Shown piece after piece: positions 2,882 to 63,955 of a stretch of 64,000 nt of DNA. Below the pieces are notes generated by a model that did no database searches, was not told the origin of the DNA, and saw nothing but the letters and a program-made list of their open reading frames with translations. Source of the stretch: an uncultured Bacilli bacterium (GTDB lineage: Bacteria > Bacillota_I > Bacilli_A > RF39 > UBA660). Both the position numbers and the translations under genes were made by a program. The stretch's first letter is position 1, and the number at the start of each line of letters is the position of its first letter. Where the stretch lies: assembly GCA_934167825.1 (NCBI GenBank), contig CAKPLY010000001.1, positions 5,508-69,507 of the forward strand, read 5' to 3'.

Positions 2882-2892
2882 AAGAGGGATAT

Positions 2893-3588: not shown

Positions 3589-3591
3589 GAT

Positions 3592-3630
3592 ATAAAAATA
3601 GTTTCCTAGTTTTTGCTAGGAAATTTTTAA
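3592..3630 (+). terminator. intrinsic terminator after murI
   Basis: The stem tttcctag/ctaggaaa is followed by TTTTT. Confidence 0.6.
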
Positions 3631-3740
3631 TGTACTTGAAAATAACCTTAATTTAGTTAATTATCTTGCTTATTTATAAAAACATGTTATAATATAAACA
3701 CAAGCAAAAGAAATTAGGTAAGTTAAAGGAGAATTATATT

Positions 3741-4586: not shown

Positions 4587-4692
4587 GAGGTAAGTAAAAT
4601 AAATAATTAACTTACTTTTTTAATATTTATGTTTAAAAATATGCTTAATTATGATATAATATTTTTTGATTTAGAGGAAGTGAACTAAAAAG

Positions 4693-10666: not shown

Positions 10667-10682
10667 ATTTTAATGGAAAGTT

Positions 10683-10715
10683 GTATCAGTTAGAAATTTA
10701 ATTGATACTTTTTTT
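10683..10715 (+). terminator. intrinsic terminator after the ATPase gene
   Basis: The stem gtatcagtt/aattgatac is followed by T7. Confidence 0.6.
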
Positions 10716-10753
10716 AGTTTTTTATGAACTTATGATGTTTTTTTCTTTAAAAT

Positions 10754-10778
10754 TTTTGCCACTAGTGGCACTTTTTTT
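10754..10778 (+). terminator. palindrome gccactagtggc + T7 (second copy)
   Basis: Identical to the element at 9296-9320. Confidence 0.6.
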
Positions 10779-10840
10779 CAGTGTAATATTTCTTTGTTGT
10801 AAATAATATTTATAATTAAATTAATATTTGTTGATTTTGT

Positions 10841-17693: not shown

Positions 17694-19796
17694 ATGAAAA
17701 GAGTAGTAAATTTTGTAGACAAGAAAGAATTAATAATAATAACAATACTTACATTTTTAATTGCACTAACAGGACTATTCGCAACGTATGCAATAGATAC
17801 TAGTTTAAGTTATAATGATACCACAGAGTATGATATGTCACTTAGTTTTGATTTATCAGCATCTACAAATAAACAAGTAACAATACCTGCAGGTAAAACA
17901 AAATTTTTTGATATAGATGTTAAAAATAGTAACAGTGGTACAATACAATATGGTATTGCATACTCTATGGTTACACCTTCAACATTACCTAATGGAGTAA
18001 CCATTGCTAAGTCTTGGAAAAGTGCAAATCCTCCAACTGGATTAATTAATGCAAACGCTACTTTGCCAGTAACAATAGCAGTAGAAAACACATCATCTAC
18101 AGATATTACAATATCTTTATCTATAATAAATGGATATGAAAAAGGTGGAGATTTAATTTTACCTAGCGGTAAAACTTTGATAACTGGTGAATTTGATGCA
18201 ACACCACCTGTAGAACCAAATGCGCCAGCATTAACAGATGCATTAATACCAATATTATATGAAAGAGATAGTATAATAATGAAAGCAGATTCAAAGGGAG
18301 ATGGAGTTACTGCTACCTGTGATAACTTAGGGGACTTAAATTTTGATGGAAGAATTGATGATAAAGATGTAAGTGCATTTTTGCCTGTTTTTCGAGACGG
18401 TTTTACTTTTCCTAATGTTGTAAAAGTATGTGCAGATGTTGATGGTGATGGTTTTGTTACAGAGGATGATATGAGGTTAATTAAAAATTATTATTATGGA
18501 GATGTGACTACTTTTCCAAAGGGTGAGCCATTGAGTACAGTAACTGGAACTGTATATATTACACCATGGTATGATTATGATAATAAACAATGGGCAAATG
18601 CAGTACTTGTAAGTGAGGCAAATAGACAGAAATATATATCCGCTGAACCTGGAACTGAAATTGCCGAAGAAGATATCCTAGCATTCTATGTATGGATACC
18701 AAGATACAAATATAAAGTATGGAATATAAATAAAGTAATAGGAACACAAAGTTATAACGCAGAAACTGCTGGTATAGATATAGTTTTTGAGGAAGGTACA
18801 AATTCTACTGGTACAATTAGTTGTACATATAGTTATGCAGCACCATCAAGTACCGCGGGAAGTCCAAACGAAACATGTACAGGAAGTAATGGGGACTATT
18901 ACACTCATCCAGCATTTACCTTTGGTAATCAAGAACTAACAGGATTTTGGATGGGAAAATTTGAACTATCAAGTAGTAATCCTACGACAGGTACTTCATA
19001 TGGTGGAGGAGAAACTACAACACTAACACCAAGAATATTACCAAATGTAACATCATGGAGATATAATACAGTATCTAACTATTGGAAAGTAATATATGAT
19101 ATGCAAACAAGTAATAATATATATGGACTTCCAACATCAAGAACAAATACTGATTCACATATGCTTACTAATATGGAGTGGGGAGCAGTAGCATATCTAA
19201 CTAATTCTAAATATGGAAGATGTACAAATGGAAGTTGTACAGAGGTATCAATGAATGGTTACGGAGAATATAGTAGATCTACAACTATGACAGGATGTGG
19301 TCCAATATCAAGTGGAAGTACAAGTTATGGAACAACATGTAATGCATATAATACAGAATTAGGGCAATTAGCTTCTACAACAGGTAATATTACGGGAGTA
19401 TATGATATGTCAGGAGGAGCATATGACTGTGTAATGGGTAATATGTCAAGGTGGAATGGAACATCATATACATATTATGAAAGAAGTGCGGGAACTAACT
19501 TTACATATAGTACAAATACTGCAAAATACCTAATACCATATGCATATGGAACAACAAGTAATAATCAAACAGCATATAATAGAGGAAGACTAGGAGATGC
19601 AACTGGTGAAATAGTAACATCTTCAGGTAATGGTTGGTATAATGACTTCGCAGGTTTTCCTAACACTGCCGGTTCTTGGTTTCGTCGCGGCGACGATTTC
19701 GCCGGTAGTAATGATGGTCTCTTCTGTTTCCTCAGCGGTGATGGCGCTAGTGACAGCAATTCTTCGGGGCGCGCCGTTTTATCCATAGCAACTTAG
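17694..19796 (+). CDS. large secreted/surface protein paralog 1: N-terminal signal anchor, internal dockerin type I repeat pair, C-terminal about 400-aa domain shared with paralog 2
   Basis: Hydrophobic N-terminus. Dockerin repeats DLNFDGRIDDKDVSAFL / DVDGDGFVTEDDMRLIKNYYYG. About 70% identity to the 62072-63955 product over the shared parts. Confidence 0.7.
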   Translation: MKRVVNFVDKKELIIITILTFLIALTGLFATYAIDTSLSYNDTTEYDMSLSFDLSASTNKQVTIPAGKTKFFDIDVKNSNSGTIQYGIAYSMVTPSTLPNGVTIAKSWKSANPPTGLINANATLPVTIAVENTSSTDITISLSIINGYEKGGDLILPSGKTLITGEFDATPPVEPNAPALTDALIPILYERDSIIMKADSKGDGVTATCDNLGDLNFDGRIDDKDVSAFLPVFRDGFTFPNVVKVCADVDGDGFVTEDDMRLIKNYYYGDVTTFPKGEPLSTVTGTVYITPWYDYDNKQWANAVLVSEANRQKYISAEPGTEIAEEDILAFYVWIPRYKYKVWNINKVIGTQSYNAETAGIDIVFEEGTNSTGTISCTYSYAAPSSTAGSPNETCTGSNGDYYTHPAFTFGNQELTGFWMGKFELSSSNPTTGTSYGGGETTTLTPRILPNVTSWRYNTVSNYWKVIYDMQTSNNIYGLPTSRTNTDSHMLTNMEWGAVAYLTNSKYGRCTNGSCTEVSMNGYGEYSRSTTMTGCGPISSGSTSYGTTCNAYNTELGQLASTTGNITGVYDMSGGAYDCVMGNMSRWNGTSYTYYERSAGTNFTYSTNTAKYLIPYAYGTTSNNQTAYNRGRLGDATGEIVTSSGNGWYNDFAGFPNTAGSWFRRGDDFAGSNDGLFCFLSGDGASDSNSSGRAVLSIAT

Positions 19797-22677: not shown

Positions 22678-22743
22678 TAGATAAATTAATTTACAAAGAG
22701 TAATAAATGTGATAAAATTATCTTAAGAATAGGAATGGTTGTT

Positions 22744-25161
22744 ATGAAGAAATTAAATAATAAGGGTTATATGTTAATAGAAGTAATACTAGCATCTGTT
22801 ATTGCTTTTGTTATGGCATATTTTTTAATAGATATAACTATAAAGTTAATTAATAAGAATAATGATTATTATGTTGAAGGAACACTTTTAGCAGATAGAA
22901 ATATTATTACTAAAGAGATAATGGATGATGTTAATTCTAGAAATTTAGTTATGATTACTCAAAATAATAGTAAGAATTATACTTTTACTTTTGATGATGG
23001 AGAAAGTGTAGTTAAAAAGGATTTAATTTTTAGTGATGATAATGTTATTACTTATGGAGATTATAGTAAGAAATTAAATGATTTATTAACTTTTGGAGAT
23101 GTAGAGATTACTTATGATGAAAGAAATAAGATACTTACTTTTAAAGTTCCTGCGTATACTAATTATTCTACATTTAATTATGGGTTTAATTTTGTTATTC
23201 CTTATAAAGAGAATTTTGATATAGAATTACCTGGTAATTGTAGTGCTATTAAGGTTATATATGATGGTGTTACTAAGATATATGAAAATACTGCTAGTTT
23301 AGATTATGATACTTCAAATACTTATAAGGTTATGTTATCATCAGGTAGTTATGTAATTGATGCATATGGAGCGCAAGGTGCAAATAGTAGTGATAATACT
23401 TATACTGGTGGTAAGGGTGGTTTTGTAAGTGGAAAGATTACTTTTAATGGAAATACTACTTTAGATGTAAAGTTAGGTGGACAAGGTGGTTTTAATGGGG
23501 GTGGAGCTTCAACTGGTAGTGGATCTTTTAATGGTGGAGGTTCTACTACTGTTTATTTAGGAAGTAACAAACTTATTAGTGCTGCTGGAGGTGGCGGTGC
23601 ATCAGTAAATGGTAATGGTGAAGATGGTGGAACTGGGGACGCTACTGGAGGAAATAATGGTTCTAATGGTGGCGGAGGTTCTGGGAAGAATGAAGATGTA
23701 TCAACTGGAGAAGACTGTGACTGTAATGGAGATGATAACTGTTCATATACTGCGATGGGTGGACCTAAAGGGACTCAAGATTGGTGTTACTGTTCAGTAG
23801 AAATAGGTGTAAATAATTCAGCTCCAAGTGGATATAGTTGTGGTAGTGCAGATAAATATGGAATGAAAACTTGTGAAAAAGACTTTGCTGCTAGTTGTGA
23901 TAGAAATTATACTACTGTTAGTAGTGGCGGTAAGGGAGGAACAAGTGTTGTTAGTAGTAACTTTAGTGCTTCTAGTAAAAGAAGCGGGGTTAATATTGGT
24001 AATGGAAAATTTACTATAACTTGTACTAATTGCAGTGATTCACCAAAGACAGATAGTAATTCTTGTCCTAGTATAGTAGTTACGGATAGTATTTTAAATG
24101 AAAATAAAGTATTAAATAATATTACTTATGATTATGTAAATTCTGGTAGGCAAGAACTTACTTTAGAGTCTGGAAACTATATTTTAGAAGTATGGGGAGC
24201 ACAAGGTGGTAATTCTGTTAGAGGAAAAGGCGGATATGGTGGATACTCAAAGGGGACTTTAAATTTAGTTAGTACTACAAATGTGTTTGTATATGTTGGA
24301 GGTCAACCTTCTAAATATACAGGTGGATTTAATGGTGGGGGAAATGCTAATGGAGATAATAAAGATTATGTTAATGCTGCTGGAGGTGGAGCTAGTGATA
24401 TAAGACTAGGTACAGATTCTTTGTTTGCAAGAGTTATTGTTGCAGGAGGAGGCGGAGGAGCAGGTTACTATTATAATGGTGGTGCTGGAGGGGGTACTAC
24501 TGGAGAAAATGGTAAAAATCAAGGCGATTCTGCTTATAGTAGCACTCCTCCAGGAGAAGGTGGAACAGCAACTTCTGGTGGAAATAGTTACTATGGATAT
24601 GATAGTTTATTTGGAGATAAATATTTAGATAAGACAGGAAGTTATGGTGATATTGCAGGCTTTGGTGTAGGAGCAGGCTATAACTCGAAGAAAAGCACTG
24701 CTTACCGTGTAGGAGGCGGTGGTGGTTGGTACGGAGGTGGATACTCTAGTAATACCGGTGGTGGCGGTGGAAGTGGATATGTATATACCTCTTCAACAGA
24801 AGATGCTTACCCTAGCGGTTGTCTACTTAATTCAAACTATTATTTAACTGATACTTCAATGTCTAATGGAGAAAACCGTGGAGATGGTAGGGTTACTATA
24901 ACTACATTAGATAGATATGATTATAAAATACCTAGGATACTTGGACTTAGTGATTTAACTATTAATAAGGGAGACTTAGTAAATTTAAATACTGATATTA
25001 GTTATAAGTGTGAAAGTGATAGTCCAAATGGATGTACATATATTGGAGTTAAGTTTATTGATACTTCGATAATAGAAAAAGGAACATACTATTTATGTTA
25101 TGTAATTAAGAGTTCTAAGGGTATAGAATATAGTTATATTAGAAAACTTATAGTAAAATAA
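22744..25161 (+). CDS. giant prepilin-type (type IV pilin-like) glycine-rich protein with two tandem Gly-rich beta-domains
   Basis: Leader MKKLNNKG then YMLIEV (Gly -1, Glu +5, hydrophobic helix). Internal duplication (SGSYVIDAYGAQGANS.. and SGNYILEVWGAQGGNS..). SD aggaa precedes the ATG at 22744. Confidence 0.6.
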   Translation: MKKLNNKGYMLIEVILASVIAFVMAYFLIDITIKLINKNNDYYVEGTLLADRNIITKEIMDDVNSRNLVMITQNNSKNYTFTFDDGESVVKKDLIFSDDNVITYGDYSKKLNDLLTFGDVEITYDERNKILTFKVPAYTNYSTFNYGFNFVIPYKENFDIELPGNCSAIKVIYDGVTKIYENTASLDYDTSNTYKVMLSSGSYVIDAYGAQGANSSDNTYTGGKGGFVSGKITFNGNTTLDVKLGGQGGFNGGGASTGSGSFNGGGSTTVYLGSNKLISAAGGGGASVNGNGEDGGTGDATGGNNGSNGGGGSGKNEDVSTGEDCDCNGDDNCSYTAMGGPKGTQDWCYCSVEIGVNNSAPSGYSCGSADKYGMKTCEKDFAASCDRNYTTVSSGGKGGTSVVSSNFSASSKRSGVNIGNGKFTITCTNCSDSPKTDSNSCPSIVVTDSILNENKVLNNITYDYVNSGRQELTLESGNYILEVWGAQGGNSVRGKGGYGGYSKGTLNLVSTTNVFVYVGGQPSKYTGGFNGGGNANGDNKDYVNAAGGGASDIRLGTDSLFARVIVAGGGGGAGYYYNGGAGGGTTGENGKNQGDSAYSSTPPGEGGTATSGGNSYYGYDSLFGDKYLDKTGSYGDIAGFGVGAGYNSKKSTAYRVGGGGGWYGGGYSSNTGGGGGSGYVYTSSTEDAYPSGCLLNSNYYLTDTSMSNGENRGDGRVTITTLDRYDYKIPRILGLSDLTINKGDLVNLNTDISYKCESDSPNGCTYIGVKFIDTSIIEKGTYYLCYVIKSSKGIEYSYIRKLIVK

Positions 25162-30854: not shown

Positions 30855-33800
30855 TTATTTTTCTTTTACTAATTTTTTCGGCTCTTCAATTTTGATATTA
30901 CTTTGTTCTAATGTTTCGATGTAACTTGTTACACTGCTATTTAGTACGTTTATTGTACCTTTAGCGTTATAAAAGTCATTTAATTTATCTAAAGTAATTT
31001 TTGCGTCATCAGCATTTTTATATAATAATGCTTTGAATAAATCCATAACATCTTTGGATAACTCAATGGTTCTTTTTTCATTTTCGATTCCTTGTCCTAT
31101 TAATAGTTCTGATCCTATTAATGGTAATAAGTCATCTCTTGCAGTTTCTAAAGCATTAATAGTAAGAAAGTGATTTACTATCATTTGATTTAATTTTACT
31201 AGTTCTTGATTTAATAGTTGGTTTGATGTAATAAATCTTTCTTTTTTGTTTTTTACTATTTGTAGTTGTGAAGAAACATCAAGATAATTTGAATATTCAA
31301 ATGGATTTGATGGATCAATAGTTTGTAATTTGTTTTCTAGTAATTTTATCATATCTATAGTTTTTAATAGAAATTCATAATTCTTTTTTGAATATTCACT
31401 TATATATTTTTTTAACTTATCGTAAGTAAGTAATTCTTTGGATAATAATTCTATGTTTTTTGATATTGCGTCTTTTAAAATATGGAAATTTTCTATTTTA
31501 ATATTTGATTCTTTTTCTCCGGATTCAACACTAAAGAGACTACTAAAAAATCCTTTTTTCTTTTCTTCAGGTTGATAACACTTGTTAACTAATTCATTAA
31601 TTGTTTCAACTGATTTTTCTGTACTATCACTATCAATTAATTTTTGTTGTTCTTGGTTTATGGTTTTAAAGTGACTTGTTAGAATGTTACCATAATTAAC
31701 TATATTAATTGTGCTTGTTAAATCTATTGAAGATACTTCGATGTTTTGCAAACTTTTAATACATTCACTTAATGTAGGTATATATTCTTTGCCTGTAATT
31801 ATTTCTTTTTGTAATATACTATAGTTTTCATCACTTAAATTACTGATGATTTTTAAGATTTTACTATTGTTTACTTCATTACTAAATAGTTTCTTTATAA
31901 TACTAGAAATAGAATAATCTTTTTCTTCAAGATATTTTTGGTAATTTAATCCTAATCTATAAGATGTTTCAGTACTTTTTATATTAGGGTTAGTAATATT
32001 TAAATACTCTAGTATTCTTTCTTTAGTTATATTATATTTTTTTAATGTCTTTGCTATAAATACTATATTATTATTTTTATCATCATCTATTTCTATAGTG
32101 TTATATGTATCAAAGAATGCTAAAATTAAAGATAGTTTTTCTTTGTCTAAATCTGTAATATTTGGTATTTTTTCTATTATAGTATTATATTTTATTGCAT
32201 TTGTTAAATATTCTTTGCTTAAACTAGAATTAGTATTTCTTAGCAAACTTTCACATCTTTGTTTAGTAGAATAATTTTCATATTGAGTATCTAGATCGTT
32301 AAAATCTTCATAGTTTTTTGATATATGATGTAAGAATCTTATTAGATATGTTCCATCATATAATTCTTTATTAAAAATATTTCTAAATATATGATATGGT
32401 GTTAAATCTTTTCTTTCTACTGAAATGTTATAACCTTTGAAAATGTAATCTAAGTAATTGTTGTATAATATTTCATTGAAATCTTTATCATTTGTTACAA
32501 CACTAGAAAAATACTGTTTATCATTTATAAGTCCTTTTTCTTTAAGAAAATCTTGTAATGATTTGTCATTTAATGTTGCATATAATATTGCAGCAACTTT
32601 TTTGTCTTCAGGACTTAAATTATTTAAAATTTTTTCTAATTCGGCATCTTGTTTTGCGATACATTTTAAATAATTAATTGTACTTGGTTTTAAATCAGTA
32701 TATAATTCTTTATATATAAAGTCTTGATGTTCTTGCTGTTTTCTTTCAGTGAATTCTTTTAATTCTTTAGTAATATCATCAATCTTTTTATCTTTTGATA
32801 AATCATTAAAGATGTTTTCTAGAACTAGACTATTACCGTTATTAAAAGTAATTTTATTTTCTTTTTGATTTATAGTTGTTGATTCATAAACACTTTTTAC
32901 TTTACTGAAACTAACTTTAGTACTTTCTAGTTCTTCTTTAGTGATATTGATACCTAGAAGATTAAATATTTTATCATAAGTTATGTCATGTTCTTCATAG
33001 AAGTTATATAAAGATTTGTTAGTAAATAGGTATGCTAAAGATATTATATCGTTATTATTCTTTAGATATTTTGTATTATCTTTCTTTTTACTTAGTATAA
33101 GAGTGTATGCTTTAGTTAAGTTAATTAAGACATTTTTGTCATTGTCAGTTATATTTTGCTCTTTTAGAAAATCATTTATTTTTATTTGTTCATCTCTTTC
33201 ATCAAGTAAGTCTAGGATATTATCTTTATATAAGTTATAACTTGATAGGATAGTTTCTACTATAGTACTATTTGTGGCATTTCTATTAAATAGAGTAGCA
33301 AATAATTCTCTAGTGGGATCTAATTTTATATTCTTTAAGCATTCTATATATGGTTGATAATATTTTTTTATTACAAGATAATTAGGTTTTAATGTAAGGT
33401 TAGATAAAACATCGTTGTATTTGGAAATTAATGATGTATCTATTTTTAATTTATTAATCATTTCTTTTATGTTGCTATCTTTACTTGTAAGAAAACTCAT
33501 AAATAATGATAATGCTGCAATGTCTTCTTTAGAGTTACAATTTGCAAAACAATTTTTTAAACTTGATAATTTTTCTTTATCATTATTTTCAGGATTAATA
33601 TATGCATTATATATTGAAGAAGCAGTTTCAATTAAATTTACGACATTTATTTGAATATTAGAAAATACTTCTTTTTTTAAATCGTTTTTAATTTTACTTT
33701 TTTCTTCCTCAATTATTTTCTCTATATTTAAATTATTATATTCTTCTTGTGTTATAAAATATTTATGAAAATAAAAGCTGCCATCCCTATATATTTCTGG

Positions 33801-34241
33801 ATCAAAAGTTGTGCTGTCTTTGTAAATGTTGTTAATTATGTCTAATGTAGTAAGTCCATAGTAATCTTCGACATTATTATATATTTGAAAATAATTTTTA
33901 TATGTATTAAAGGTTTCTTTTAGATTGTTTTTTTCAATATTTATTATTGTTTCCTTATATGATATTTCGACGTCATTGCGATCAACAAATTTTCCTTTTG
34001 CTAATTCTCTTGCGATATATTGATAATTATTTTTGCCATATAGTGCTTCAATAAACATTACGATTTCTTTTAAAAAAGTACTACCAATTATATATTTATA
34101 AATATATTGATCTAATTTAACGACGATATACAAATCTGAATTATAAGTTCGTAAGTGATATAGATATTTTAAAACTGTGTTTACATATGTTTTTGTTTCT
34201 TTTGGTATTATTTCCATAAATTCTTCATAACTTATATTCAT
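30855..34241 (-). CDS. large (1128 aa) Lys/Asn/Glu/Ile-rich predicted helical protein of unknown function
   Basis: Long ORF with native codon usage, strong SD agaggggg, promoter TTGACA-17-TATCAT. No recognisable catalytic motif. Confidence 0.6.
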   Translation of the reverse strand: MNISYEEFMEIIPKETKTYVNTVLKYLYHLRTYNSDLYIVVKLDQYIYKYIIGSTFLKEIVMFIEALYGKNNYQYIARELAKGKFVDRNDVEISYKETIINIEKNNLKETFNTYKNYFQIYNNVEDYYGLTTLDIINNIYKDSTTFDPEIYRDGSFYFHKYFITQEEYNNLNIEKIIEEEKSKIKNDLKKEVFSNIQINVVNLIETASSIYNAYINPENNDKEKLSSLKNCFANCNSKEDIAALSLFMSFLTSKDSNIKEMINKLKIDTSLISKYNDVLSNLTLKPNYLVIKKYYQPYIECLKNIKLDPTRELFATLFNRNATNSTIVETILSSYNLYKDNILDLLDERDEQIKINDFLKEQNITDNDKNVLINLTKAYTLILSKKKDNTKYLKNNNDIISLAYLFTNKSLYNFYEEHDITYDKIFNLLGINITKEELESTKVSFSKVKSVYESTTINQKENKITFNNGNSLVLENIFNDLSKDKKIDDITKELKEFTERKQQEHQDFIYKELYTDLKPSTINYLKCIAKQDAELEKILNNLSPEDKKVAAILYATLNDKSLQDFLKEKGLINDKQYFSSVVTNDKDFNEILYNNYLDYIFKGYNISVERKDLTPYHIFRNIFNKELYDGTYLIRFLHHISKNYEDFNDLDTQYENYSTKQRCESLLRNTNSSLSKEYLTNAIKYNTIIEKIPNITDLDKEKLSLILAFFDTYNTIEIDDDKNNNIVFIAKTLKKYNITKERILEYLNITNPNIKSTETSYRLGLNYQKYLEEKDYSISSIIKKLFSNEVNNSKILKIISNLSDENYSILQKEIITGKEYIPTLSECIKSLQNIEVSSIDLTSTINIVNYGNILTSHFKTINQEQQKLIDSDSTEKSVETINELVNKCYQPEEKKKGFFSSLFSVESGEKESNIKIENFHILKDAISKNIELLSKELLTYDKLKKYISEYSKKNYEFLLKTIDMIKLLENKLQTIDPSNPFEYSNYLDVSSQLQIVKNKKERFITSNQLLNQELVKLNQMIVNHFLTINALETARDDLLPLIGSELLIGQGIENEKRTIELSKDVMDLFKALLYKNADDAKITLDKLNDFYNAKGTINVLNSSVTSYIETLEQSNIKIEEPKKLVKEK

Positions 34242-48749: not shown

Positions 48750-48827
48750 AGAAATTATTATAAAGTACTTTCTTTTTTTTTATAGTTTTGATATAATTAG
48801 ATATGTAGAGTAACGAAAGGAGTATAT

Positions 48828-49406
48828 ATGAAAAGGGTATTAGGAGATAATAAACGTTCATTAATTACTATTTTTGGTGTTGTTTTACTGATAGTTATTG
48901 TTGCTGGAGTTACTTATGCTTTATTTGAAGCAAATGCTAATAAGGAAGATGCAGTTTCTGGAGATACTTGTTTTTCTATTAAGTACACTAAGGGGCAAAA
49001 TATAAGTGGAGAATTAGAAATGGGTGCAAGTTATACTACTGGTAAGAGTACAGATATAGTTATTGGTTTAGATAATTCAAGTAGTAATGCTAATAGATGT
49101 AGTAATATTATTGGTAAGGGAACGATATATTTAACTACTACTAGTTCTAATTTAGACTATACTAAAACTAATATTCCTTTAAGATATAGTGTTGTTGTAG
49201 GGTCTACAGTTAAAGCAACTGGTGCAATTAATGGAACAGAAAATCAAGTATTATATGAAAACTTTGATGTTACTGCGACTAGTGTTACATATAAGGTGTA
49301 CATTTGGTATGATCAAAGTAAAGATGATATTAATGATTTTAGCGATATAACATTTGCTGGATATATACATGCAAGTGTAGTAGGTAAATCTACAATAACA
49401 AGTTAA
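48828..49406 (+). CDS. membrane-anchored Ser/Thr-rich beta-rich protein (192 aa), unknown function
   Basis: N-terminal TM anchor. No motif recognised. Confidence 0.4.
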   Translation: MKRVLGDNKRSLITIFGVVLLIVIVAGVTYALFEANANKEDAVSGDTCFSIKYTKGQNISGELEMGASYTTGKSTDIVIGLDNSSSNANRCSNIIGKGTIYLTTTSSNLDYTKTNIPLRYSVVVGSTVKATGAINGTENQVLYENFDVTATSVTYKVYIWYDQSKDDINDFSDITFAGYIHASVVGKSTITS

Positions 49407-49433
49407 TAGATAATAAGAAAGTGGGTAATATAT

Positions 49434-50393
49434 ATGACAAATATTAATGTTGAAGTTGGAGAGTTAATGAGACTTAGTTCTAGAAGTGAAGAATTAAATA
49501 GTGATATATCAAGTACTTTTAATGGAATAAATAATGTGCTTGATAACATATCTGGAATAGTTAGATCTGATACTCTAACAGGTGCTAATGATATACAAAA
49601 AGATGGGGTTAATACCTTAATGGTAAGAATAGATGAAAACTTAAGAAATATTAAGATATTCTTAGATAATCAAATTAAGAATTATACTGTGTCAGTAGAA
49701 GATGCACTTAATTCTTTGAATACACTTATTGCAGCGATAAATGGTGCTTATGGAGCAAATAGTGGAAAGAGTTATACTAGTTTTACTGCTAATAAATCTA
49801 CAAGTGATAATGTTAGTGTAGAGTCTAGTGTTCAAGGTAAGAAGGTAGAAACTAATTCTTCAACTACATCTACAGAAAAGAATTATACAGTTAGTAGTAC
49901 ACCTTATAATGCTAATACTAGTATAAATGCTGTTAATCCGGATGCTAAAACTTCTAGTGATAATATGAATAAAAATCTTGATGCTCTTGGTACATGGGAT
50001 AATGTATCTGGTACATATGATTTCTTCAAAGAAAAGGGGTTAACTGATGAACAAATTGCAGGTATTATGGGTAATGCATACGCTGAAAGTAAATTTAAGC
50101 TCGATGCAAAAAATCCTAATTCTTCTGCAACAGGTATATTTCAATGGTTGAATGGTAGACAACCTAGTGATTGGAGTTTAAATGGACAACTTGAACATGC
50201 TTGGAATGAAATAGCAAATACTAGATATAATGGTAAAGTAATAAGCAAGTTACAAGAATGTACTACTCCTAGTGATGCTGCTTATTCTTTTGCAAAGTGG
50301 TTCGAAGGATATACTGAAAATGTTTCAACGAGACAAAGTTATGCTGAAGCGTTTTATGACTATATAAAAGATAGAAATGGTGTTAAAGGTTAA
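49434..50393 (+). CDS. two-domain protein: N-terminal about 105-aa helical (WXG100/LXG-like) domain + C-terminal phage-tail-lysozyme-like peptidoglycan hydrolase domain
   Basis: C-terminal AGIMGNAYAESKF...ATGIFQWLNGRQ...QLEHAWNEI...AYSFAKWFEGY matches the phage tail tip lysozyme pattern (GN..AESG..GI.QW.G.R). The N-domain is paralogous to the 50415-50750 product. Confidence 0.55.
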   Translation: MTNINVEVGELMRLSSRSEELNSDISSTFNGINNVLDNISGIVRSDTLTGANDIQKDGVNTLMVRIDENLRNIKIFLDNQIKNYTVSVEDALNSLNTLIAAINGAYGANSGKSYTSFTANKSTSDNVSVESSVQGKKVETNSSTTSTEKNYTVSSTPYNANTSINAVNPDAKTSSDNMNKNLDALGTWDNVSGTYDFFKEKGLTDEQIAGIMGNAYAESKFKLDAKNPNSSATGIFQWLNGRQPSDWSLNGQLEHAWNEIANTRYNGKVISKLQECTTPSDAAYSFAKWFEGYTENVSTRQSYAEAFYDYIKDRNGVKG

Positions 50394-50414
50394 TAAAAAT
50401 AAGGTAGGTGGAAT

Positions 50415-50750
50415 ATGGCAAATATTAATGTTGAAATTGGAGAGCTAATAAGACTTAGTTCTAGGAGTGAAGATATTAATAGTGATATTAAGAGTACTTT
50501 TAATGGGATAAATAATGTACTTGATAATATAACTAGTATAGTTAGATCTGATACTTTAACGGGTGCTAATCAAATGCAAAAAGAAAATGTTAATTCTTTA
50601 ATGACAAGTATTGATAGTAATTTAAATAATATTAAGATGTTTTTAGATAATCAAATTAAGAATTATACAGTTTCAGTAGATGATGCATTAGATTCATTAA
50701 ATAGATTAATTATGTCAATTAATTCAGCGTATGGTGGTATTAATAATTAA
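50415..50750 (+). CDS. standalone paralog of the N-terminal helical domain of the 49434-50393 product (111 aa)
   Basis: About 75% identity over 105 aa (MANINVEIGELIRLSSRSEDINSDIKSTFNGINNVLDN...). Confidence 0.6.
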   Translation: MANINVEIGELIRLSSRSEDINSDIKSTFNGINNVLDNITSIVRSDTLTGANQMQKENVNSLMTSIDSNLNNIKMFLDNQIKNYTVSVDDALDSLNRLIMSINSAYGGINN

Positions 50751-50796: not shown

Positions 50797-50835
50797 ATTT
50801 ACAAAACTTATAAAAGATTAAGTAAGTTAATATTT

Positions 50836-51000
50836 ATTTTATAGAGAGTTTGTGGGTGGTGAAAGCAAATAATAAAGTTAACTGAATGCTACTTTTAGAT
50901 ATGTGTAGTAATAACTACCGGATGATTCCGTTATAAAAAATAAGTAAAAATAAGGTGGTACCACGATTAATAATCGTCCTTTGTGTGTGCCATCTTTTTA
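50836..51000 (+). ncRNA. T-box riboswitch leader, alanine specifier (GCU), controlling the P-loop gene + alaS
   Basis: Stem I AGAGAG..GGTGA (K-turn). Specifier GCUA at about 50886. Conserved T-box AAGGTGGTACCACG at 50952-50965. Downstream hairpin plus U-run. Confidence 0.65.
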
Positions 51001-51028: not shown

Positions 51029-51580
51029 ATGAACAAATTAATAGCAATAGTAGGAATGTGTGGAAGTGGAAAAAGCGTAGCGTGTGACAAGTTAGTTAGT
51101 ATGGGGTATAACAAAATATACTTTGGAGGAGTTACAATGGATTGTCTTAAGGAAAAGGGACTTGAAATTAACCCTGAAAATGAGAAAATGATGCGAGAGA
51201 AGTTACGTGAAGATTTAGGTATGGGAGCATTTGCGATAATTCTTTTACCTAAGATTGAAGAAGCGGTAAAAAAGGGAGATACTGTACTAGATGGTGTATA
51301 TTCTTATGATGAAGTAAAAATATTAAAAGATAAATTTGCTAATCTTAAGATAGTTGCAGTAGTATGTGATAAAAAGACAAGATATGGAAGATTAAAGGTA
51401 AGAAGTATTAGACCACTTACAGAAGAAGAAGCAGAGAAAAGAGATGTTAGTGAGGTAGAAAATATTAAGAAGGCTCCTCCAATTGCTTTAGCAGATTATT
51501 ATATAGATAATAATGGTACAGTGGAAGAATATAATAAGAGAATACTTGAAATACTTGATGATATAGGAAGTGATAAATAA
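51029..51580 (+). CDS. P-loop NTPase / putative nucleotide kinase-like protein
   Basis: Walker A GMCGSGKS; 183 aa. Co-transcribed with alaS behind the T-box. Confidence 0.45.
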   Translation: MNKLIAIVGMCGSGKSVACDKLVSMGYNKIYFGGVTMDCLKEKGLEINPENEKMMREKLREDLGMGAFAIILLPKIEEAVKKGDTVLDGVYSYDEVKILKDKFANLKIVAVVCDKKTRYGRLKVRSIRPLTEEEAEKRDVSEVENIKKAPPIALADYYIDNNGTVEEYNKRILEILDDIGSDK

Positions 51581-54270
51581 TGAAGAAATTAACTGGGGAA
51601 GAGATAATTAATACATTTTTAAATTATTTTAAGGAACATGGGCATAAGGTTATAGAATCTGCACCACTAATACCTAAGGATGATCCTAGTGTTTTATGGA
51701 TTAATGCTGGTGTTACACCTTTAAAAAAATATTTTGATGGTAGTGTTGTTCCAGAAAATAGAAGGATGGTTGGAGTACAAAAATGTATAAGAACGGGAGA
51801 TATTGAAAGTGTTGGTAAGACTGCAAGACATCATACTTTCTTTCAAATGTTAGGTAACTTTAGTGTAGGAGATTATTTTAAGGATGAAGCAATTAGTATG
51901 TCATATGAGTTATTAACTAGTCCTAAATATTTTGGGTTTGATAAAGATAAACTATATGTTACAGTGTATCCAACTGATGAAGAAGCTTATAATAAATGGT
52001 TAAGTCTTGGAGTAGATAAATCGCATATAATAAAACTAGAAAATAATTTTTGGGAGATAGGTGAAGGACCTAGTGGACCAGATAGTGAGATATTTTATGA
52101 TCGTGGAGAAAAATACGATAAGGATAATCTAGGTATTAAATTACTTCAAGAGGAAATAGAAAATGATAGGTATATAGAGATATGGAATAATGTATTTAGT
52201 CAATATAATGCTGTTATGGGTGTACCAAGAAGTGAATATAAGGAACTTCCTAGTAAGAATATAGATACTGGTATGGGAGTAGAGAGAATGGCATGTATTA
52301 TGCAAGAAGTAGAAACTAACTATGAAACAGATTTATTTATTCCTATAATTAAGAAAATAGAAGAGATATCTATGAGAGAATATCATGGAGATATGGAGTT
52401 TAAAGTTATAGCAGATCATATTAGAACACTAGTATTTGCCTTAAGTGATGGTGCAACATTCTCTAACTATGGAAGAGGTTATGTACTTAGAAGACTTCTT
52501 AGAAGAAGCGTTAGAATGGGTAAGAAGTTAGGAATAAGTAAGAATTTCTTAAGTGATTTGGTAGATACTGTTGTTAGTATTTATGTTACTACATATAGAA
52601 ATTTAAGTAATAATATAAAAGAAATAAAAGATGTTATTACTAAGGAAGAAGAATTATTTAAACGTACTTTACTTTCTGGAGAGAAAAGGTTAGAAGAACT
52701 TCTTAATAGTGATGATAAGGTTATTAGTGGACTTGATGCATATAAGTTATATGATACTTATGGATTTCCTGTTGAGTTAACTATAGAGATTGCTTTAGAA
52801 AAAGGTAAGACTGTAGATAAAGATGGATTTGATAAGTATATGGAAGAAGGAAAAATTTTAGCAAGAAATAATAGAAAAGAAGATAGTAGTATGCATATAC
52901 AAAATGAGTTATTACTTAACTACAAGAAAGATAGCGATTTTGTTGGGTATAACTACTTAGAGTGTGCTAGTACTATTATTGATATTATTAAAGATAATAC
53001 TTTTGTTAATGAACTTAATGATTTTGGGTATATAGTACTTGATAAGACACCTTTTTATGCTACTAGCGGGGGACAAATATATGATACTGGTACTATAACT
53101 GAAAGAGGAGTATTAGCAGAAGTTACTGAGGTAGTTAAGGCTCCTAATAAACAACATTTAATGTATGTTCATGTTAAAAATGGTAGTTTAAAAGTAGGAG
53201 ACGTTGTTACTTCTTCAGTAGATAAATCAAGAAGATTTAATATTATGAAGAATCATAGTAGTGTTCATTTACTTCAAAAGACATTACAAGAATTACTTTC
53301 TTCAAACGTACATCAGGCAGGTTCTAGTGTTACAGAAGATAGTTTTAGATTTGACTTTATATATCAAGGTAAACTTAGTGATGAATTAATACTTGATGTT
53401 GAAAAAAGAGTTAATGAAAGAGTTAATGAAGGGGTAGATACTAAGATAGAGACAATGAGTTTAGAAGAAGCAACTAAAAAGAATGCTATGGCTTTATTTG
53501 AAGATAAATATGGTAGTGTTGTTAGAGTTGTTACTTTAGGAGATTCTGTTGAACTTTGTGCAGGAACTCATGTTAAGAATACTAAAGATATTAAAAGGAT
53601 TGCTATATTATCTGTAGAAAATAAGGGAAGTAATACTTATAGAATTACTGGTGCTACTGATAAGTTTATAGGTAAGATGTTATCTATAGAGATTAAACCA
53701 TATAGAGATGAGATTACTAAATTATTAGAAAAAGCTAAAAGGATTATGGTTGACGCTAAAGAACTTGGAATAGAATTAGAGTTTGATTTTAGTGTTGATT
53801 TTGATGAATTAGATAGTTATAAAGATGTTATTGATATTAAAAATAATCTTAATACTTTAAAAGATAAAGTTAAAGAATTAGAAAAGTTATATAATGAAAA
53901 GAAAGTATTAACTAGTATTAAGGATTTGAGTGCATTTACTGATAGTAAAATAATGATTAATGATGTTAATACTATTGTAGCAATTACTGATAATTATGAA
54001 GGTAATATACTAAAACAAATAACTGATGAGTTAGCAAATAAATATGATAAGTACTTTATATTACTTGCAAACACTAAAGGTAATAATGTAAACTTTATAT
54101 GTAAGAGTAATTATGATAAGGTAAATGTTGGTTCTGTTATTAGAGAACTTAGTCAAAAATGTCTTGGCAATGGTGGAGGAAATAAAAACTTTGCACAAGG
54201 TGGAGGAACAGATATTACAAATCTTGGTGCTAACTTACAAGATATTAAAGAGTATTTAAGAAATTTATAA
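51580..54270 (+). CDS. alaS: alanyl-tRNA synthetase
   Basis: HHTFFQMLGNFS class II signature, editing domain, and a C-terminal DHHA1-like region with GGGNKNFAQGGG. Confidence 0.95.
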   Translation: MKKLTGEEIINTFLNYFKEHGHKVIESAPLIPKDDPSVLWINAGVTPLKKYFDGSVVPENRRMVGVQKCIRTGDIESVGKTARHHTFFQMLGNFSVGDYFKDEAISMSYELLTSPKYFGFDKDKLYVTVYPTDEEAYNKWLSLGVDKSHIIKLENNFWEIGEGPSGPDSEIFYDRGEKYDKDNLGIKLLQEEIENDRYIEIWNNVFSQYNAVMGVPRSEYKELPSKNIDTGMGVERMACIMQEVETNYETDLFIPIIKKIEEISMREYHGDMEFKVIADHIRTLVFALSDGATFSNYGRGYVLRRLLRRSVRMGKKLGISKNFLSDLVDTVVSIYVTTYRNLSNNIKEIKDVITKEEELFKRTLLSGEKRLEELLNSDDKVISGLDAYKLYDTYGFPVELTIEIALEKGKTVDKDGFDKYMEEGKILARNNRKEDSSMHIQNELLLNYKKDSDFVGYNYLECASTIIDIIKDNTFVNELNDFGYIVLDKTPFYATSGGQIYDTGTITERGVLAEVTEVVKAPNKQHLMYVHVKNGSLKVGDVVTSSVDKSRRFNIMKNHSSVHLLQKTLQELLSSNVHQAGSSVTEDSFRFDFIYQGKLSDELILDVEKRVNERVNEGVDTKIETMSLEEATKKNAMALFEDKYGSVVRVVTLGDSVELCAGTHVKNTKDIKRIAILSVENKGSNTYRITGATDKFIGKMLSIEIKPYRDEITKLLEKAKRIMVDAKELGIELEFDFSVDFDELDSYKDVIDIKNNLNTLKDKVKELEKLYNEKKVLTSIKDLSAFTDSKIMINDVNTIVAITDNYEGNILKQITDELANKYDKYFILLANTKGNNVNFICKSNYDKVNVGSVIRELSQKCLGNGGGNKNFAQGGGTDITNLGANLQDIKEYLRNL

Positions 54271-57018: not shown

Positions 57019-57759
57019 GTGGAAGTAGCAAGAGTAAAACAAGCGTTAATAGAACAAAGAAAAATAAATTTATCAGGTAATTTATATCATAAGACACAAC
57101 TTGATTTTGCTTATAATACTAATCATATCGAGGGTTCTACTATAACACCTGATGAAACTGCTAGTATATATGATACAGGAACTATTTTAACTAGTGAGAA
57201 TAAAATTATTGTTTTAAAAGATGCCACAGAAACAAAAAATCATTTTACTTTATTTAAATATATGCTAGATACAATAGATGAAAAACTAAATGAAGATATG
57301 ATAAAGAAATTTCATTTTATTTTAAAAGATGGAACTTTAACGGATGAAGAAAAAGTATGGTTTAATGTTGGAGAATATAAAAAGATAAAGAATTTTGTAG
57401 GTAATATTACAACTTCTTTACCAAGTGAAGTATCAAAAGATATGATGGAATTATTAAAGTGGTATGATAGTATAGATAAAAAGACTATTTTAGATATAAT
57501 AGAGTTTCATGTAAGATTTGAAATGATACATCCTTTTCAAGATGGAAATGGTAGAGTTGGTAGAATGATAATGTTTAGAGAATGTTTATATAATGATATA
57601 ATGCCTTTCTTCATTGAAGAGAGAAACAAAGAGTTTTATATACGTGGTATAAAGGAATATCAAAATAATAATGATAAAAATTATTTAATAGATACATGTT
57701 TAAATAGTCAAGATAATTATGAAAAGATGGTTAATTATTTTCTTTTAGAAGATAAATAA
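57019..57759 (+). CDS. fic: Fic-family protein (AMPylase/Doc-like)
   Basis: Fic motif HPFQDGNGRVGR. Confidence 0.85.
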   Translation: MEVARVKQALIEQRKINLSGNLYHKTQLDFAYNTNHIEGSTITPDETASIYDTGTILTSENKIIVLKDATETKNHFTLFKYMLDTIDEKLNEDMIKKFHFILKDGTLTDEEKVWFNVGEYKKIKNFVGNITTSLPSEVSKDMMELLKWYDSIDKKTILDIIEFHVRFEMIHPFQDGNGRVGRMIMFRECLYNDIMPFFIEERNKEFYIRGIKEYQNNNDKNYLIDTCLNSQDNYEKMVNYFLLEDK

Positions 57760-57787
57760 ACTATATTATGCAAGGAGGTAAACTTTT

Positions 57788-58804
57788 ATGCAAACATTAC
57801 AAATAAAAAACTCAACAGCAGAATTTTTGATATTTTCAAAACAAAATAAAGAAAAGACAATAGAAGTACTTGTTGATGATGAATCAGTTTGGCTTAGTCA
57901 AAAATTAATGGCTGAACTTTTTGGGACAACAAGAAATAATATAACAATGCATCTTAATAATATTTTTCGTGAAGAATTAAATGAAAATTCAGTATGTAAG
58001 GATTCCTTACATACTGCTAGTGATGGCAAGAGTTATAAAACAAAATATTATAATTTAGATGCTATTATTGCAGTTGGATTTAAAGTCAATAGTAAAAGGG
58101 CAATAGATTTTAGATTATGGGCTATTAATGTTTTAAAACAATATTCAGTTAAGGGTTATGTATTAGATAAAGAGAGATTAAAAAATGGTTCTTTTCTTGA
58201 TGAAAATTATTTTAACGAATTATTACAAGAAATTAGAGAAATAAGAATTAGTGAAAGAAATTTTTATCAAAAGATTACTGATATATATGCAACAAGTTTA
58301 GACTATAATTCACAATCACCATTAACACAAGAATTTTTTAAAACAGTTCAAAATAAAATGCACTATGCTACTCATGGAAATACTGCAGCAGAGGTTATAA
58401 TGAATCGTGCAGATTATAAAAAAACTCATATGGGATTAACAAGTTGGAAAAATGCTCCTGATGGCAAAATAATTGCTGCCGATGTTGTAGTTGCAAAAAA
58501 CTATTTAACTAAAGAAGAACTTAAATCATTAGAAAGAATCGTCACAATGTATTTGGATTATGCCGAAGATCAAGCTGAAAGACATATTCCAATGACTATG
58601 GAAGATTGGAAAAATAGACTTGATGTATTCTTACAATTTAATGAAAGGGATGTATTAAATAATCCAGGTAAAATATCTCATAAGGTAGCAGAGAGTTTTG
58701 CATTATCTCAATTTGAGAAATATAGAATTATTCAAGATAAACTATTTGAATCTGATTTTGATAAATTTATGATTGAAATGAAAAAAGATGATATTAATAA
58801 TTAA
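57788..58804 (+). CDS. RhuM-family virulence-associated protein
   Basis: N-terminal SEFLIF..E..IEV..D.ESVWLSQKLMAELF pattern typical of RhuM; commonly paired with Fic. Confidence 0.65.
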   Translation: MQTLQIKNSTAEFLIFSKQNKEKTIEVLVDDESVWLSQKLMAELFGTTRNNITMHLNNIFREELNENSVCKDSLHTASDGKSYKTKYYNLDAIIAVGFKVNSKRAIDFRLWAINVLKQYSVKGYVLDKERLKNGSFLDENYFNELLQEIREIRISERNFYQKITDIYATSLDYNSQSPLTQEFFKTVQNKMHYATHGNTAAEVIMNRADYKKTHMGLTSWKNAPDGKIIAADVVVAKNYLTKEELKSLERIVTMYLDYAEDQAERHIPMTMEDWKNRLDVFLQFNERDVLNNPGKISHKVAESFALSQFEKYRIIQDKLFESDFDKFMIEMKKDDINN

Positions 58805-62071: not shown

Positions 62072-63955
62072 ATGAAAAAAGTAATAAATTTTGTAGACAA
62101 GAAAGAATTAATAATAATAACAATACTTACATTTTTAATTGCACTTACAGGACTATTTGCAACGTATGCAATAGATACTAGTTTAAGTTATAATGACACC
62201 ACAGAGTATGATATGTCACTTAATTTTGATTTATCTGCATCTACGAATAAACAAGTAACAATCCAAGCAGGCAAAACAAAATTCTTTGATATAGATGTTA
62301 AAAATAGTAATAATGGTACAATAAAGTATGGTATTGCATACTCTATGGTTACTCCATCAATTTTACCTGATGGAGTAACTATTGCGAAGTCCTGGAAAAG
62401 CGCAAATCCTACAACTGGATTAATTAACGCAAATGTTACATTACCAGTAACTATCGCCGTAGAAAACACGTCATCAACAGATATCACAATATCATTATCT
62501 ATAATAAATGGATATGAAAAAGGTGGAGATTTGATTGTACCTACTAGTAAAACTTTGATAACTGGTGTATATAGAGTAGGGCCACCTCCAGAACCAAATA
62601 CTCCTGTATTAACAGATGCTTTAATACCTGTTACTTACAATGATTCTACTTCAACTTGGGTGAAGGCAGATTCGACAAACAATAATAATTCGTGGTATAA
62701 CTATAAAAACAAAATATGGGCAAATGCAGTATTAGTATCATCTACAAATCGTAGTACATACCAGTCTGCAAGTGCAGGAACAACTATAGCAGACGTAGAT
62801 ATCTTAGCATTTTATGTATGGATACCAAGATATAAATATAAAGTATGGAATAAAGATAAAATAATGGGTACACAAAGTTATAATGCACAAACTGAAGGTA
62901 TAGATATAGTTTTTGAAGAAGATATTGATTCTACTGGTACAATAAGTTGTACATATAGTTATGAAGCACCATCAAATACTGCAGGAAGTCCAAATGAAAC
63001 TTGTGCAGGAAGTAATGGAAATTACTATACTCATCCAGCGTTTACTTTTGGTGATCAAGAGCTAACAGGATTTTGGATGGGAAAGTTTGAATTGTCTAGT
63101 AGTGATCCTGCGACTGGTTCATCATATGGTGGATCATATAGTACTACACTAACTCCAAGAATATTACCAAATGTAACATCATGGAGATATAATAATTTAT
63201 CAAGTTATTGGAAAGTAATATATGATATGCAAGTAAGTAATAATATATATGGACTACCAACCTCAAGAACAAATACCGATTCACATATGCTTACTAATAT
63301 GGAGTGGGGAGCAGTAGCATATCTAACTAATTCAAAATATGGAAGATGTACAAATGGAAGTTGTACAGAAGTATCAATTAATGGTGCATGGGATAATAGT
63401 GATGGTGGTTCTAACTATTATACGTATTATACAACAAAAACTGGTTGTGGTCCAATATCAAGTGGAAGTACAAGTTCTGGAACAACATGTAATGCATATA
63501 ATACAACATTAGGACAAATGGCATCCACTACAGGTAATGTATATGGAATATATGATATGTCCGGAGGTTCAGATGAATTAGTGATGGGTAATATATCAAG
63601 TGAAAGTGGAATATCGTATACATATAATGCAGGTTACACAGGTTCTTACTTTACATATAGTACAGATACAGCAAAATATCTAATACCATATGCATACGGA
63701 ACAACAAGAAATGACCAAACAGCATATAATAGAGGAAGACTAGGAGATGCAACAAGTGAAGTAGTATCTAGAGCAAGTTATGGATGGTATAGTGATAGTG
63801 CTAATTTCCCTTTTAGTAGTGAGTCGTGGTTTAAACGTGGAGGCACTTTTTATTATGATTCTGGTATAACTGGAATTTTTACTTTTACTGCAGAAGGTGG
63901 TGCTGAGGGATTTGAACATTATTCAACCCGTGCTGCTCTCTCTATAGCAAACTAA
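62072..63955 (+). CDS. large secreted/surface protein paralog 2 (no dockerin insert)
   Basis: The first 160 aa are nearly identical to paralog 1, and the C-terminal domain is shared (YVWIPRYKYKVWN, THPAFTFG.QELTGFWMGKFELSSS, MLTNMEWGAVAYLTNSKYG); ends RAALSIAN. Confidence 0.7.
   Translation: MKKVINFVDKKELIIITILTFLIALTGLFATYAIDTSLSYNDTTEYDMSLNFDLSASTNKQVTIQAGKTKFFDIDVKNSNNGTIKYGIAYSMVTPSILPDGVTIAKSWKSANPTTGLINANVTLPVTIAVENTSSTDITISLSIINGYEKGGDLIVPTSKTLITGVYRVGPPPEPNTPVLTDALIPVTYNDSTSTWVKADSTNNNNSWYNYKNKIWANAVLVSSTNRSTYQSASAGTTIADVDILAFYVWIPRYKYKVWNKDKIMGTQSYNAQTEGIDIVFEEDIDSTGTISCTYSYEAPSNTAGSPNETCAGSNGNYYTHPAFTFGDQELTGFWMGKFELSSSDPATGSSYGGSYSTTLTPRILPNVTSWRYNNLSSYWKVIYDMQVSNNIYGLPTSRTNTDSHMLTNMEWGAVAYLTNSKYGRCTNGSCTEVSINGAWDNSDGGSNYYTYYTTKTGCGPISSGSTSSGTTCNAYNTTLGQMASTTGNVYGIYDMSGGSDELVMGNISSESGISYTYNAGYTGSYFTYSTDTAKYLIPYAYGTTRNDQTAYNRGRLGDATSEVVSRASYGWYSDSANFPFSSESWFKRGGTFYYDSGITGIFTFTAEGGAEGFEHYSTRAALSIAN

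Follow-up and report, generated by a model that had tools for sequence, protein, structure and literature searches.

A helical-hairpin module on strain-exchangeable cell-wall hydrolases of uncultured gut Bacilli: a possible WXG100-like address for enzymes without signal peptide

Introduction

How can an enzyme that cuts the cell wall reach its substrate if it carries neither a signal peptide nor a membrane segment? This question is raised by a three-gene block in a 64,000-nucleotide stretch of DNA from an uncultured Bacilli bacterium (GenBank assembly GCA_934167825.1, contig CAKPLY010000001.1), the whole of which is called the window in the following. The middle gene of the block encodes a protein of 319 amino acids (aa) in which an N-terminal helical hairpin is joined through a linker to a wall-hydrolase domain, and the next gene encodes a second copy of the hairpin on its own. 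An earlier note, made from the letters of this DNA alone, had read the pair as effector-like and had likened the hairpin to the WXG100/LXG domains of type VII secretion systems (T7SS). Judged by its sequences, the hairpin is a previously undescribed family, here called family A, and a module of its own at the N-terminus of several kinds of wall hydrolase. We think that WXG100-like targeting modules of this sort, together with free partner hairpins, may deliver signal-less modular wall hydrolases by a type VII-like route, and we put the probability of this reading at roughly 0.5.

A wall hydrolase without signal peptide

The three open reading frames (ORFs) of the block lie at the coordinates first reported for them, all on the + strand, and encode 192, 319 and 111 aa. 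Their main features are the following.

48828-49406, + strand: membrane-anchored 192-aa protein, no family assigned (ORF call, hydrophobicity)
49434-50393, + strand: 319-aa fusion of a family-A hairpin, a disordered linker and a Phage_lysozyme2 domain (ORF, Pfam, AlphaFold)
49434-49757, + strand: N-module (family A) of the fusion, residues 1-108, a helix-turn-helix hairpin (BLASTP, AlphaFold, family alignment)
49758-49955, + strand: Ser/Thr/Asn-rich linker of low confidence, about residues 109-174 (confidence score, strain alignments)
49930-50390, + strand: exchangeable catalytic cassette, about residues 166-319 (blastn breakpoints, base-level alignment, Pfam)
50415-50750, + strand: free-standing family-A hairpin, 111 aa (ORF, BLASTP)

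The phage-tail-lysozyme pattern noticed in the C-terminal part of the fusion is confirmed by a match to PF18013 (Phage_lysozyme2) at residues 191-310, corresponding to 50004-50363 of the window, with E=4e-21 and 76.1 bits against a cutoff of 28.2. AlphaFold predicts for the 319-aa protein two helices at residues 2-48 and 53-110, a stretch with a predicted local distance difference test score (pLDDT) below 50 at residues 106-173, and a confident C-domain, whose nearest solved folds in structure comparison are goose-type lysozymes and lytic transglycosylases (probability 0.91-0.93). The catalytic Glu-Ser pair, E218-S219, is invariant among 11 relatives. These features support the assignment of the C-domain as a putative muramidase or lytic transglycosylase of the Phage_lysozyme2 type.

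Neither the 319-aa nor the 111-aa protein shows a signal peptide or a transmembrane segment in a hydrophobicity scan, the maximal Kyte-Doolittle means over 19 residues being 0.84 and 0.57, respectively, with no hydrophobic segment in either. A wall hydrolase that keeps its catalytic Glu-Ser pair and yet lacks such signals needs a route other than Sec, or release from the cell, in order to act.

Hairpin family A

The free-standing hairpin is a paralog of the fused N-terminus, with 83 of 108 residues identical (77%, BLASTP E=9e-57; the first estimate had been about 75%), a similarity far beyond chance. At the nucleotide level the two genes are ~80% identical, with the differences concentrated in codons 53-76. 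The absence of a W-x-G motif, already remarked from the letters, is borne out by the family turn, S45-x-x-L48-T-x-A-N52, which has no tryptophan. Helix 2 bears a conserved stripe, F76-x3-Q80-x3-Y84. Three free-standing 111-aa variants from other strains (P0033, P0036 and P0047) match the fused copy, and not the free copy, over their first ~50 residues; this mosaic structure suggests that the two paralogs have occasionally undergone gene conversion.

With the 111-aa protein as query, HMMER was run exhaustively against 1.84 billion cluster representatives and returned a family of 45. The module nearly always occupies residues 1-108; P0080, where it is offset by ~20 residues, and a spurious repeat protein depart from this. 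Free-standing proteins of 102-116 aa make up about half of the members, and the remainder are fused to 110-300 further residues. An alignment of 37 members has 111 columns and is almost free of indels; Q80 and Y84 are invariant in it, and E10, L48, F76 and L98 nearly so. On the N-module, all Pfam, NCBIfam and PHROG models stay below their cutoffs.

Pfam identifies as fusion partners Phage_lysozyme2 (four cases), Hydrolase_2 (four), GH24 (two), M23, SLT, NlpC/P60 and a GDSL esterase. Some C-domains of the family have no Pfam assignment; all those identified are wall-directed, and no Pfam nuclease, ADP-ribosyltransferase or pore-former domain is found among them. A word-indexed search with the family-A profile gave almost exclusively conspecific sequences, and a genome scan with a single protein gave three loci in metagenome-assembled genomes (MAGs) labelled 'uncultured Bacilli' or 'Tenericutes'. 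A first metagenome scan gave zero loci and a second one three, one of which is a phage tape-measure gene.

Exchange of the catalytic domain between strains

The same neighbourhood is found, at 97-98% nucleotide identity, on contigs from other gut samples, where the fusion product has 300 aa. In this allele the N-module and the linker are unchanged, and a SleB-like Hydrolase_2 domain replaces Phage_lysozyme2. According to blastn breakpoints and base-level alignment, the replaced stretch comprises ~460 bp, about 49930-50390. The left junction lies within the linker, just past EKNYTVSSTPYN (about 49930), and at the right junction (about 50390) identity returns with the stop codon and with the ribosome-binding site that precedes the next gene; the linker itself differs between strains by a 12-aa indel. 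Of the two alleles, Hydrolase_2 is the commoner, with 19 of 21 conspecific clusters. The nucleotide identity of the fused N-module across six related strain loci, whichever C-domain follows, is 98.8-100% in five and 96.0% in the other (L001); the free hairpin gene is kept in every strain, with 95-100% identity across these loci. The catalytic domain is a cassette that has been exchanged by recombination between strains, and the comparison with polymorphic effector loci made in the earlier note thus proves apt in this respect.

The same note had supposed that the fusion has a cognate small helical partner. Small helical genes do accompany the fusion, but the 111-aa protein is a second hairpin of the targeting type rather than a cognate immunity partner, and it stays through the swap. 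Between strains with different catalytic domains, 103 of 111 residues of this product and 189 of 192 residues of the upstream membrane-anchored product are identical. Since both genes are unaltered by the swap, neither encodes an immunity protein specific for the catalytic domain.

Family B and related loci

A second hairpin family, here called B, is encoded by genes of ~96-106 aa that adjoin family-A genes in related MAG and metagenome loci. It has an invariant tryptophan in the turn (NWxNE, FWNEG, MWNGD) and provides the best WXG100 matches of this study, with E=5.8e-5 and 23.7 bits against 27.3 for PF06013 and E=5.4e-5 for TIGR03930, both below the curated cutoffs. When the family-B profile was compared with the sequences of the PDB, weak full-length matches of EsxA/ESAT-6 type were obtained (E 0.07-0.5, not significant).

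Members of both families stand together in L012, L014, L017, L022 and L025. The arrangement is a B-A-B triad in L012 and L017, A-lysozyme, B, A in L022, and a 98-aa gene followed by A in L025; in L014, B, A, A-Hydrolase_2 and B lie between infB and rbfA, and a second A-lysozyme gene follows glmM. The cluster of hairpin and hydrolase genes at L014 3287-5881 splits infB and rbfA, which are normally neighbours.

In L005 (5432-7978), three tandem genes of 275, 274 and 269 aa share a near-identical, Trp-bearing N-module of B type and have three different C-domains, one of them Phage_lysozyme2 and two without Pfam assignment. The genes are ~40 bp apart with no intervening genes, so that the immunity-type partners that would go with the idea of toxin loci are missing between these tandem hydrolases.

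Another locus, seen in L015-L018 at about 9680-10800 and probably of the same species as the window, has the order B (105 aa), A (111 aa), B (152 aa) after ftsA-ftsZ-mscS. On its 3' side follow a 360-aa protein that has a signal peptide and is anchored at its C-terminus, and then genes for a SpoIIAA-like STAS protein, a sigma factor and SpoVA. L017 has an insertion directly 5' of the triad, which encodes an 855-aa surface protein.

Likeness to WXG100 proteins and to type VII substrates

The predicted hairpin of family A resembles an Esx protein. AlphaFold2, run with a deeper alignment, predicts it with a pLDDT of 86.5 and helices at residues 8-42 and 46-106. Among the 14 top matches of this model in a Foldseek comparison with the PDB, 13 are Esx/WXG100 proteins, including Bacillus anthracis EsxB, CFP-10/ESAT-6 and Thermomonospora curvata EsxA-EsxB; for 4lws the probability is 1.00, the template modelling scores are 0.76/0.84 and the root-mean-square deviation is 1.8 Å. 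EsxA of Geobacillus and of Staphylococcus aureus and the TelA-LXG/LapA3/LapA4 complex (8gmh) come lower in the list. Besides the length of ~100 residues and the helix-turn-helix fold, WXG100/Esx proteins (PF06013, TIGR03930) and family A have in common adjacent paralogous or partner genes and weak hidden Markov model (HMM) alignments over nearly the full profile (E 0.016-0.028 for the N-module), and the partner family B bears the turn tryptophan. Unlike the Esx proteins, family A has no W-x-G, scores far below the cutoffs, has no linked EssC-type ATPase in the loci found, and doubles as an N-terminal handle on enzymes.

In type VIIb secretion systems (T7SSb), WXG100-like hairpins of ~100 aa without WxG act as export factors that bundle with the helical domain of larger substrates, and recognition is bipartite, with a WxG turn on one partner and an aromatic export arm on the other, either YxxxD/E or, in Lap1, FxxxD at F77/D81 (PMC10765036, PMC9600955). 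The stripe F76-x3-Q80-x3-Y84 of family A stands at the place corresponding to Lap1 F77/D81. We consider this a resemblance and not a match, since Q is found where Lap1 has D and there is no acidic residue four positions after Y84. A YxxxD/E motif starting at Y84 was also considered and rejected, position +4 being Asn or Val and acidic residues standing at +5 and +6.

The LXG toxins, with their Lap/WXG100-like factors, offer the closest genetic parallels: an N-terminal helical domain, a recombining C-domain, small helical neighbours (PMC9600955, PMC10801868, PMC10765036) and, in LapD1 F77/D81, a counterpart of the aromatic stripe at nearly the same position of helix 2. The differences are several. 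The family-A module has ~108 aa instead of ~200 and matches neither PF04740 nor TIGR04197 nor DUF3958; its stripe reads F-x3-Q-x3-Y where Lap1 has FxxxD; its identified cargo consists of wall hydrolases, in contrast to nucleases, NADases and membrane toxins; and its loci have no immunity genes. In a 2012 survey of polymorphic toxins, wall-acting toxin domains were placed under the type VI secretion system, the Photorhabdus virulence cassette (PVC) or TcdB/TcaC, not under T7SS (PMC3482391).

A peptidoglycan hydrolase can be tied to type VII export in another way. To our knowledge, EssH of S. aureus is not a WXG-like fusion. It is a CHAP-domain hydrolase needed for type VII secretion (PMC13059805, PMC13492133), encoded at the T7SS locus, and it bears on the problem of how type VII substrates get through a thick wall. 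Its catalytic fold differs from that of the 319-aa protein.

Several results weigh against a type VII-like role. The N-module scores 15.1 bits against PF06013 (cutoff 27.3) and 15.3 against TIGR03930 (cutoff 44.85), and the best family-A member reaches E=0.0022 with the WXG100 model, still below cutoff. The window proteins have zero matches to TIGR04197 and DUF3958, and PF04740 (LXG) finds nothing at E<=1 among them or at E<=0.1 among their relatives. All Foldseek E-values are >=0.06 for what is a simple fold, and viral hairpins of unrelated function score alike, which makes the argument from fold weak; searched against PDB sequences, the profile of the full-length family finds only generic coiled coils (designed coiled coils, apolipoprotein and similar). 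The hhalign comparison of families A and B gives a probability of 12.6%, not significant, so a common origin of the two is not demonstrable. No EssC, EsaA, EssB or YukD gene and no EssC-like multi-P-loop ORF was found in the 64-kb window, in agreement with the initial observation that the window has no secretion-machinery gene, or in ~325 kb of partly redundant sequence from other loci (at least 10 neighbourhoods). Thus the EssC/EsaA-type genes that had been thought worth seeking are missing from the ~389 kb fetched, redundancy included. Finally, wherever a neighbourhood has a diagnostic gene (SpoVA, SpoIIM, SpoIIR, Cse60), it indicates a spore former. A literature search for T7SSb in Erysipelotrichales-like taxa found no paper.

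On sequence grounds, then, family A is not a demonstrable member of the WXG100, LXG or Lap families, although its architecture and genetics appear to work like theirs. The claims of the earlier note share this divided outcome. For the N-domain, the size, the hairpin fold and the structural matches to Esx and LXG-Lap proteins speak for a WXG100/LXG-like module, while WXG100 matches stay under the cutoff and LXG and TIGR04197 give none. For the interpretation as a whole, the hydrolase domain, the Esx-like hairpin and the polymorphism stood, but curated family membership, a cognate immunity partner and T7SS genes in the neighbourhoods did not.

A possible export route and its target

If the type VII-like reading holds, the fused hairpin would pack side by side in the cytoplasm with free hairpins, namely the downstream family-A paralog, the family-B proteins of the second locus, which is apparently part of the same genome, or both. 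The resulting Esx-like helical bundle, comparable to EsxA-EsxB or LXG-Lap complexes, would be the export signal, and the 111-aa free hairpin would be a partner in it before export. Within the bundle, the Trp turn of family B might take the role of the WxG motif, and the F76-x3-Q80-x3-Y84 stripe of family A that of the export arm (YxxxD/E or FxxxD). The hydrolase would then cross the membrane through a type VII-like machine whose genes would lie elsewhere, and the exported enzyme would cut the glycan strands of the wall.

Whose wall would be cut is a further issue. Besides murG-murB-ftsQ in the window and ftsA-ftsZ in the second locus, wall and division neighbours include an FtsW/RodA-like gene in L012 and glmM, which lies beside A- or B-type genes in five loci (L005, L009, L014, L023, L026), with a hydrolase of this kind directly 3' of it. 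Because the genes adjoin cell-wall and division genes and immunity genes are missing, we slightly favour the producer's own wall over that of rivals as the target; the exchange of cassettes between strains leans toward conflict.

Alternative explanations

The strongest rival, although we consider it unlikely, is that these hydrolases are linked to sporulation and never secreted: made in the mother cell, they would be released at its lysis or assembled on the spore, with the fused hairpin serving for assembly or targeting and the free-standing ones as structural or regulatory partners. Mother-cell wall hydrolases without signal peptide, which need no secretion system, are known in Bacillus, and CwlJ and CwlC of Bacillus subtilis can serve as the model for enzymes released at lysis or assembled on the spore. 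The missing signal peptide of the 319-aa protein, the SleB/CwlJ-type Hydrolase_2 of the commonest allele at the locus and the zero count of T7SS genes across the fetched sequence all suit this explanation. So does the spore-former context just mentioned, in which A and B genes have near them SpoVA, the SpoIIAA-like STAS protein and the sigma factor (second locus), SpoIIM and Cse60, and SpoIIR (L025). Moreover, a single address shared by enzymes of different bond specificities would be in keeping with a joint destination, the spore for example. On the other hand, the near-threshold WXG100 matches of family B and the Esx-dominated structural list point to proteins of T7SS type, cassette exchange between strains and polymorphic tandem arrays are features met more often among exported effectors, and no coat or germination protein family is matched in Pfam or NCBIfam. 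Mere synteny may explain the sporulation genes nearby; the locus in the window adjoins murG, murB, ftsQ and alaS.

Also unlikely, in our opinion, is that the lineages with families A and B lack a canonical T7SS altogether and use the hairpins as a dedicated addressing system for wall hydrolases, leading to the septum, the mother-cell wall, the spore surface or an unknown channel, wired beside wall and division genes and diversified by cassettes.

An autolysin under divisome control, of the PcsB/CwlO/EnvC/RipC kind, is distinctly less probable. Here the hydrolase would be restrained by a coiled-coil N-domain and switched on at the septum by a membrane partner such as FtsEX. The order of the parts, a helical coiled coil and then a wall hydrolase, agrees with this, as do the varied catalytic domains, M23 and NlpC/P60 among them, and the repeated presence of division and wall genes nearby. 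Known hydrolases of this kind, however, carry Sec signal peptides, whereas the 319-aa protein has no hydrophobic N-terminus and hence no Sec signal. The Pfam-annotated neighbourhoods contain neither an FtsE nor an FtsX family, the module consists of one short hairpin of 105 aa at the extreme N-terminus and not a long coiled coil, and the free-standing paralogs and Trp-bearing partners have no counterpart in those systems.

We give very little credit to a classical pair of polymorphic toxin and immunity protein directed against rivals, in which the 111-aa product would confer immunity or neutralise the toxin. It would account for the replaced C-terminal domain and for a small gene directly 3' of it, but that gene encodes a paralog of the targeting module and not an inhibitor, it hardly changes when the catalytic domain is swapped, nothing separates the three tandem hydrolase genes of L005, and the fused C-domains include none of the Pfam toxin classes named above.

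A prophage remnant, in which a tail lysin or endolysin would have been domesticated together with a helical N-terminus of phage origin, is scarcely credible: the C-domain has the catalytic family and the goose-lysozyme/lytic-transglycosylase-like fold of tail-associated and tape-measure lysins, shares 33-35% identity with tail lysins and tape-measure lysin domains of Bacillus and Staphylococcus phages, and matches PHROG tail families, but these matches skip the hairpin (linker and C-domain only, residue 100 onward), so phage origin fits the C-domain alone, and the N-module is unmatched in 50,697 phage and 72,556 plasmid records and in an IMG/VR scan, the flanks are chromosomal core genes conserved between strains (murG, murB, ftsQ, alaS) with no phage genes, and the GC content of the locus is level with its surroundings.

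The block and its surroundings

On its 5' side the block follows genes for MurG, MurB and a POTRA_1 FtsQ/DivIB protein (Pfam). The gaps before its three genes, 78, 27 and 21 bp according to the ORF coordinates, suggest a single transcription unit. The 319-aa gene has a Shine-Dalgarno-like sequence 5' of its ATG, and the 111-aa gene the ribosome-binding site AGGTGG. Between ftsQ and the block, 48750-48827 contains an AT-rich inverted repeat (AAAGAAA...TTTCTTT) with a T-run, followed by a TATAAT-like box and the ribosome-binding site AAAGGAG; the repeat and the box may provide the block with its own promoter. The consensus scan for promoters and terminators, with 25 sites where 28 are expected, tells nothing in DNA so rich in AT and gave no confirmation of it. 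The first gene product has an N-terminal membrane helix at residues 15-33 (Kyte-Doolittle mean over 19 residues, 2.75) and zero Pfam, NCBIfam or PHROG matches. Kinship with the other signal-anchored proteins of the genome was considered and discarded, the BLAST similarity being confined to the anchor.

The 3' side is formed by the following features.

50809-50984, + strand: T-box leader RF00230 with an Ala (GCU) specifier (Rfam)
51029-51580: AAA_18 kinase-like gene, downstream of the T-box leader
51580-54270: alaS, downstream of the T-box leader

The leader opens the next unit, with the AAA_18 gene and alaS, and in this way bounds the block. Its score of 89.1 bits (E=3e-20) falls just short of the gathering score, 93, and it was missed by the scan of the whole 64-kb window at the gathering threshold, which, like the tRNA scan, returned nothing.

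Elsewhere in the window there is a general SecDF gene at 13375-15660, and one extension of the sequence beyond the left end of the window gave housekeeping genes only. Large surface-type proteins are encoded at 17694-19796, 62072-63955 and 22735-25161; two of the large surface-type proteins have near-identical signal-anchor N-termini, and one of that pair has a dockerin. An 808-aa surface-type protein combines a prepilin-like N-terminus (KGYMLIEV) with an ALK_LTK glycine-rich domain (E=2e-55). In L002, at 1927-5049, a 1040-aa gene with an ALK_LTK_GRD domain and a dockerin has no counterpart in the window. At 57019-58804 a Fic-domain gene is followed by a RhuM-family gene, and since the latter is missing in strain L002, this stretch is a small strain-variable island. 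The largest unannotated gene in the window is a 1128-aa ORF at 30855-34241 (- strand), with zero Pfam or NCBIfam matches.

Conclusions

The swap locus offers a natural and cleanly delimited domain-swap junction, and the hairpin a putative short new targeting module. If the type VII-like reading is right, Esx-like export handles that are apparently dedicated to wall-cutting enzymes would exist, unrecognised by Pfam, NCBIfam and PHROGs. How substrates pass the thick Gram-positive wall is an open question for the T7SSb field (PMC13492133), and here the type VII-like substrates would themselves be wall cutters. Should the genomes prove to have no T7SS, the hairpins would instead mark an unknown addressing system for autolysins. 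With type VII-like export, these little-known gut Bacilli would possess a possible route to remodel their own wall or to lyse their neighbours.

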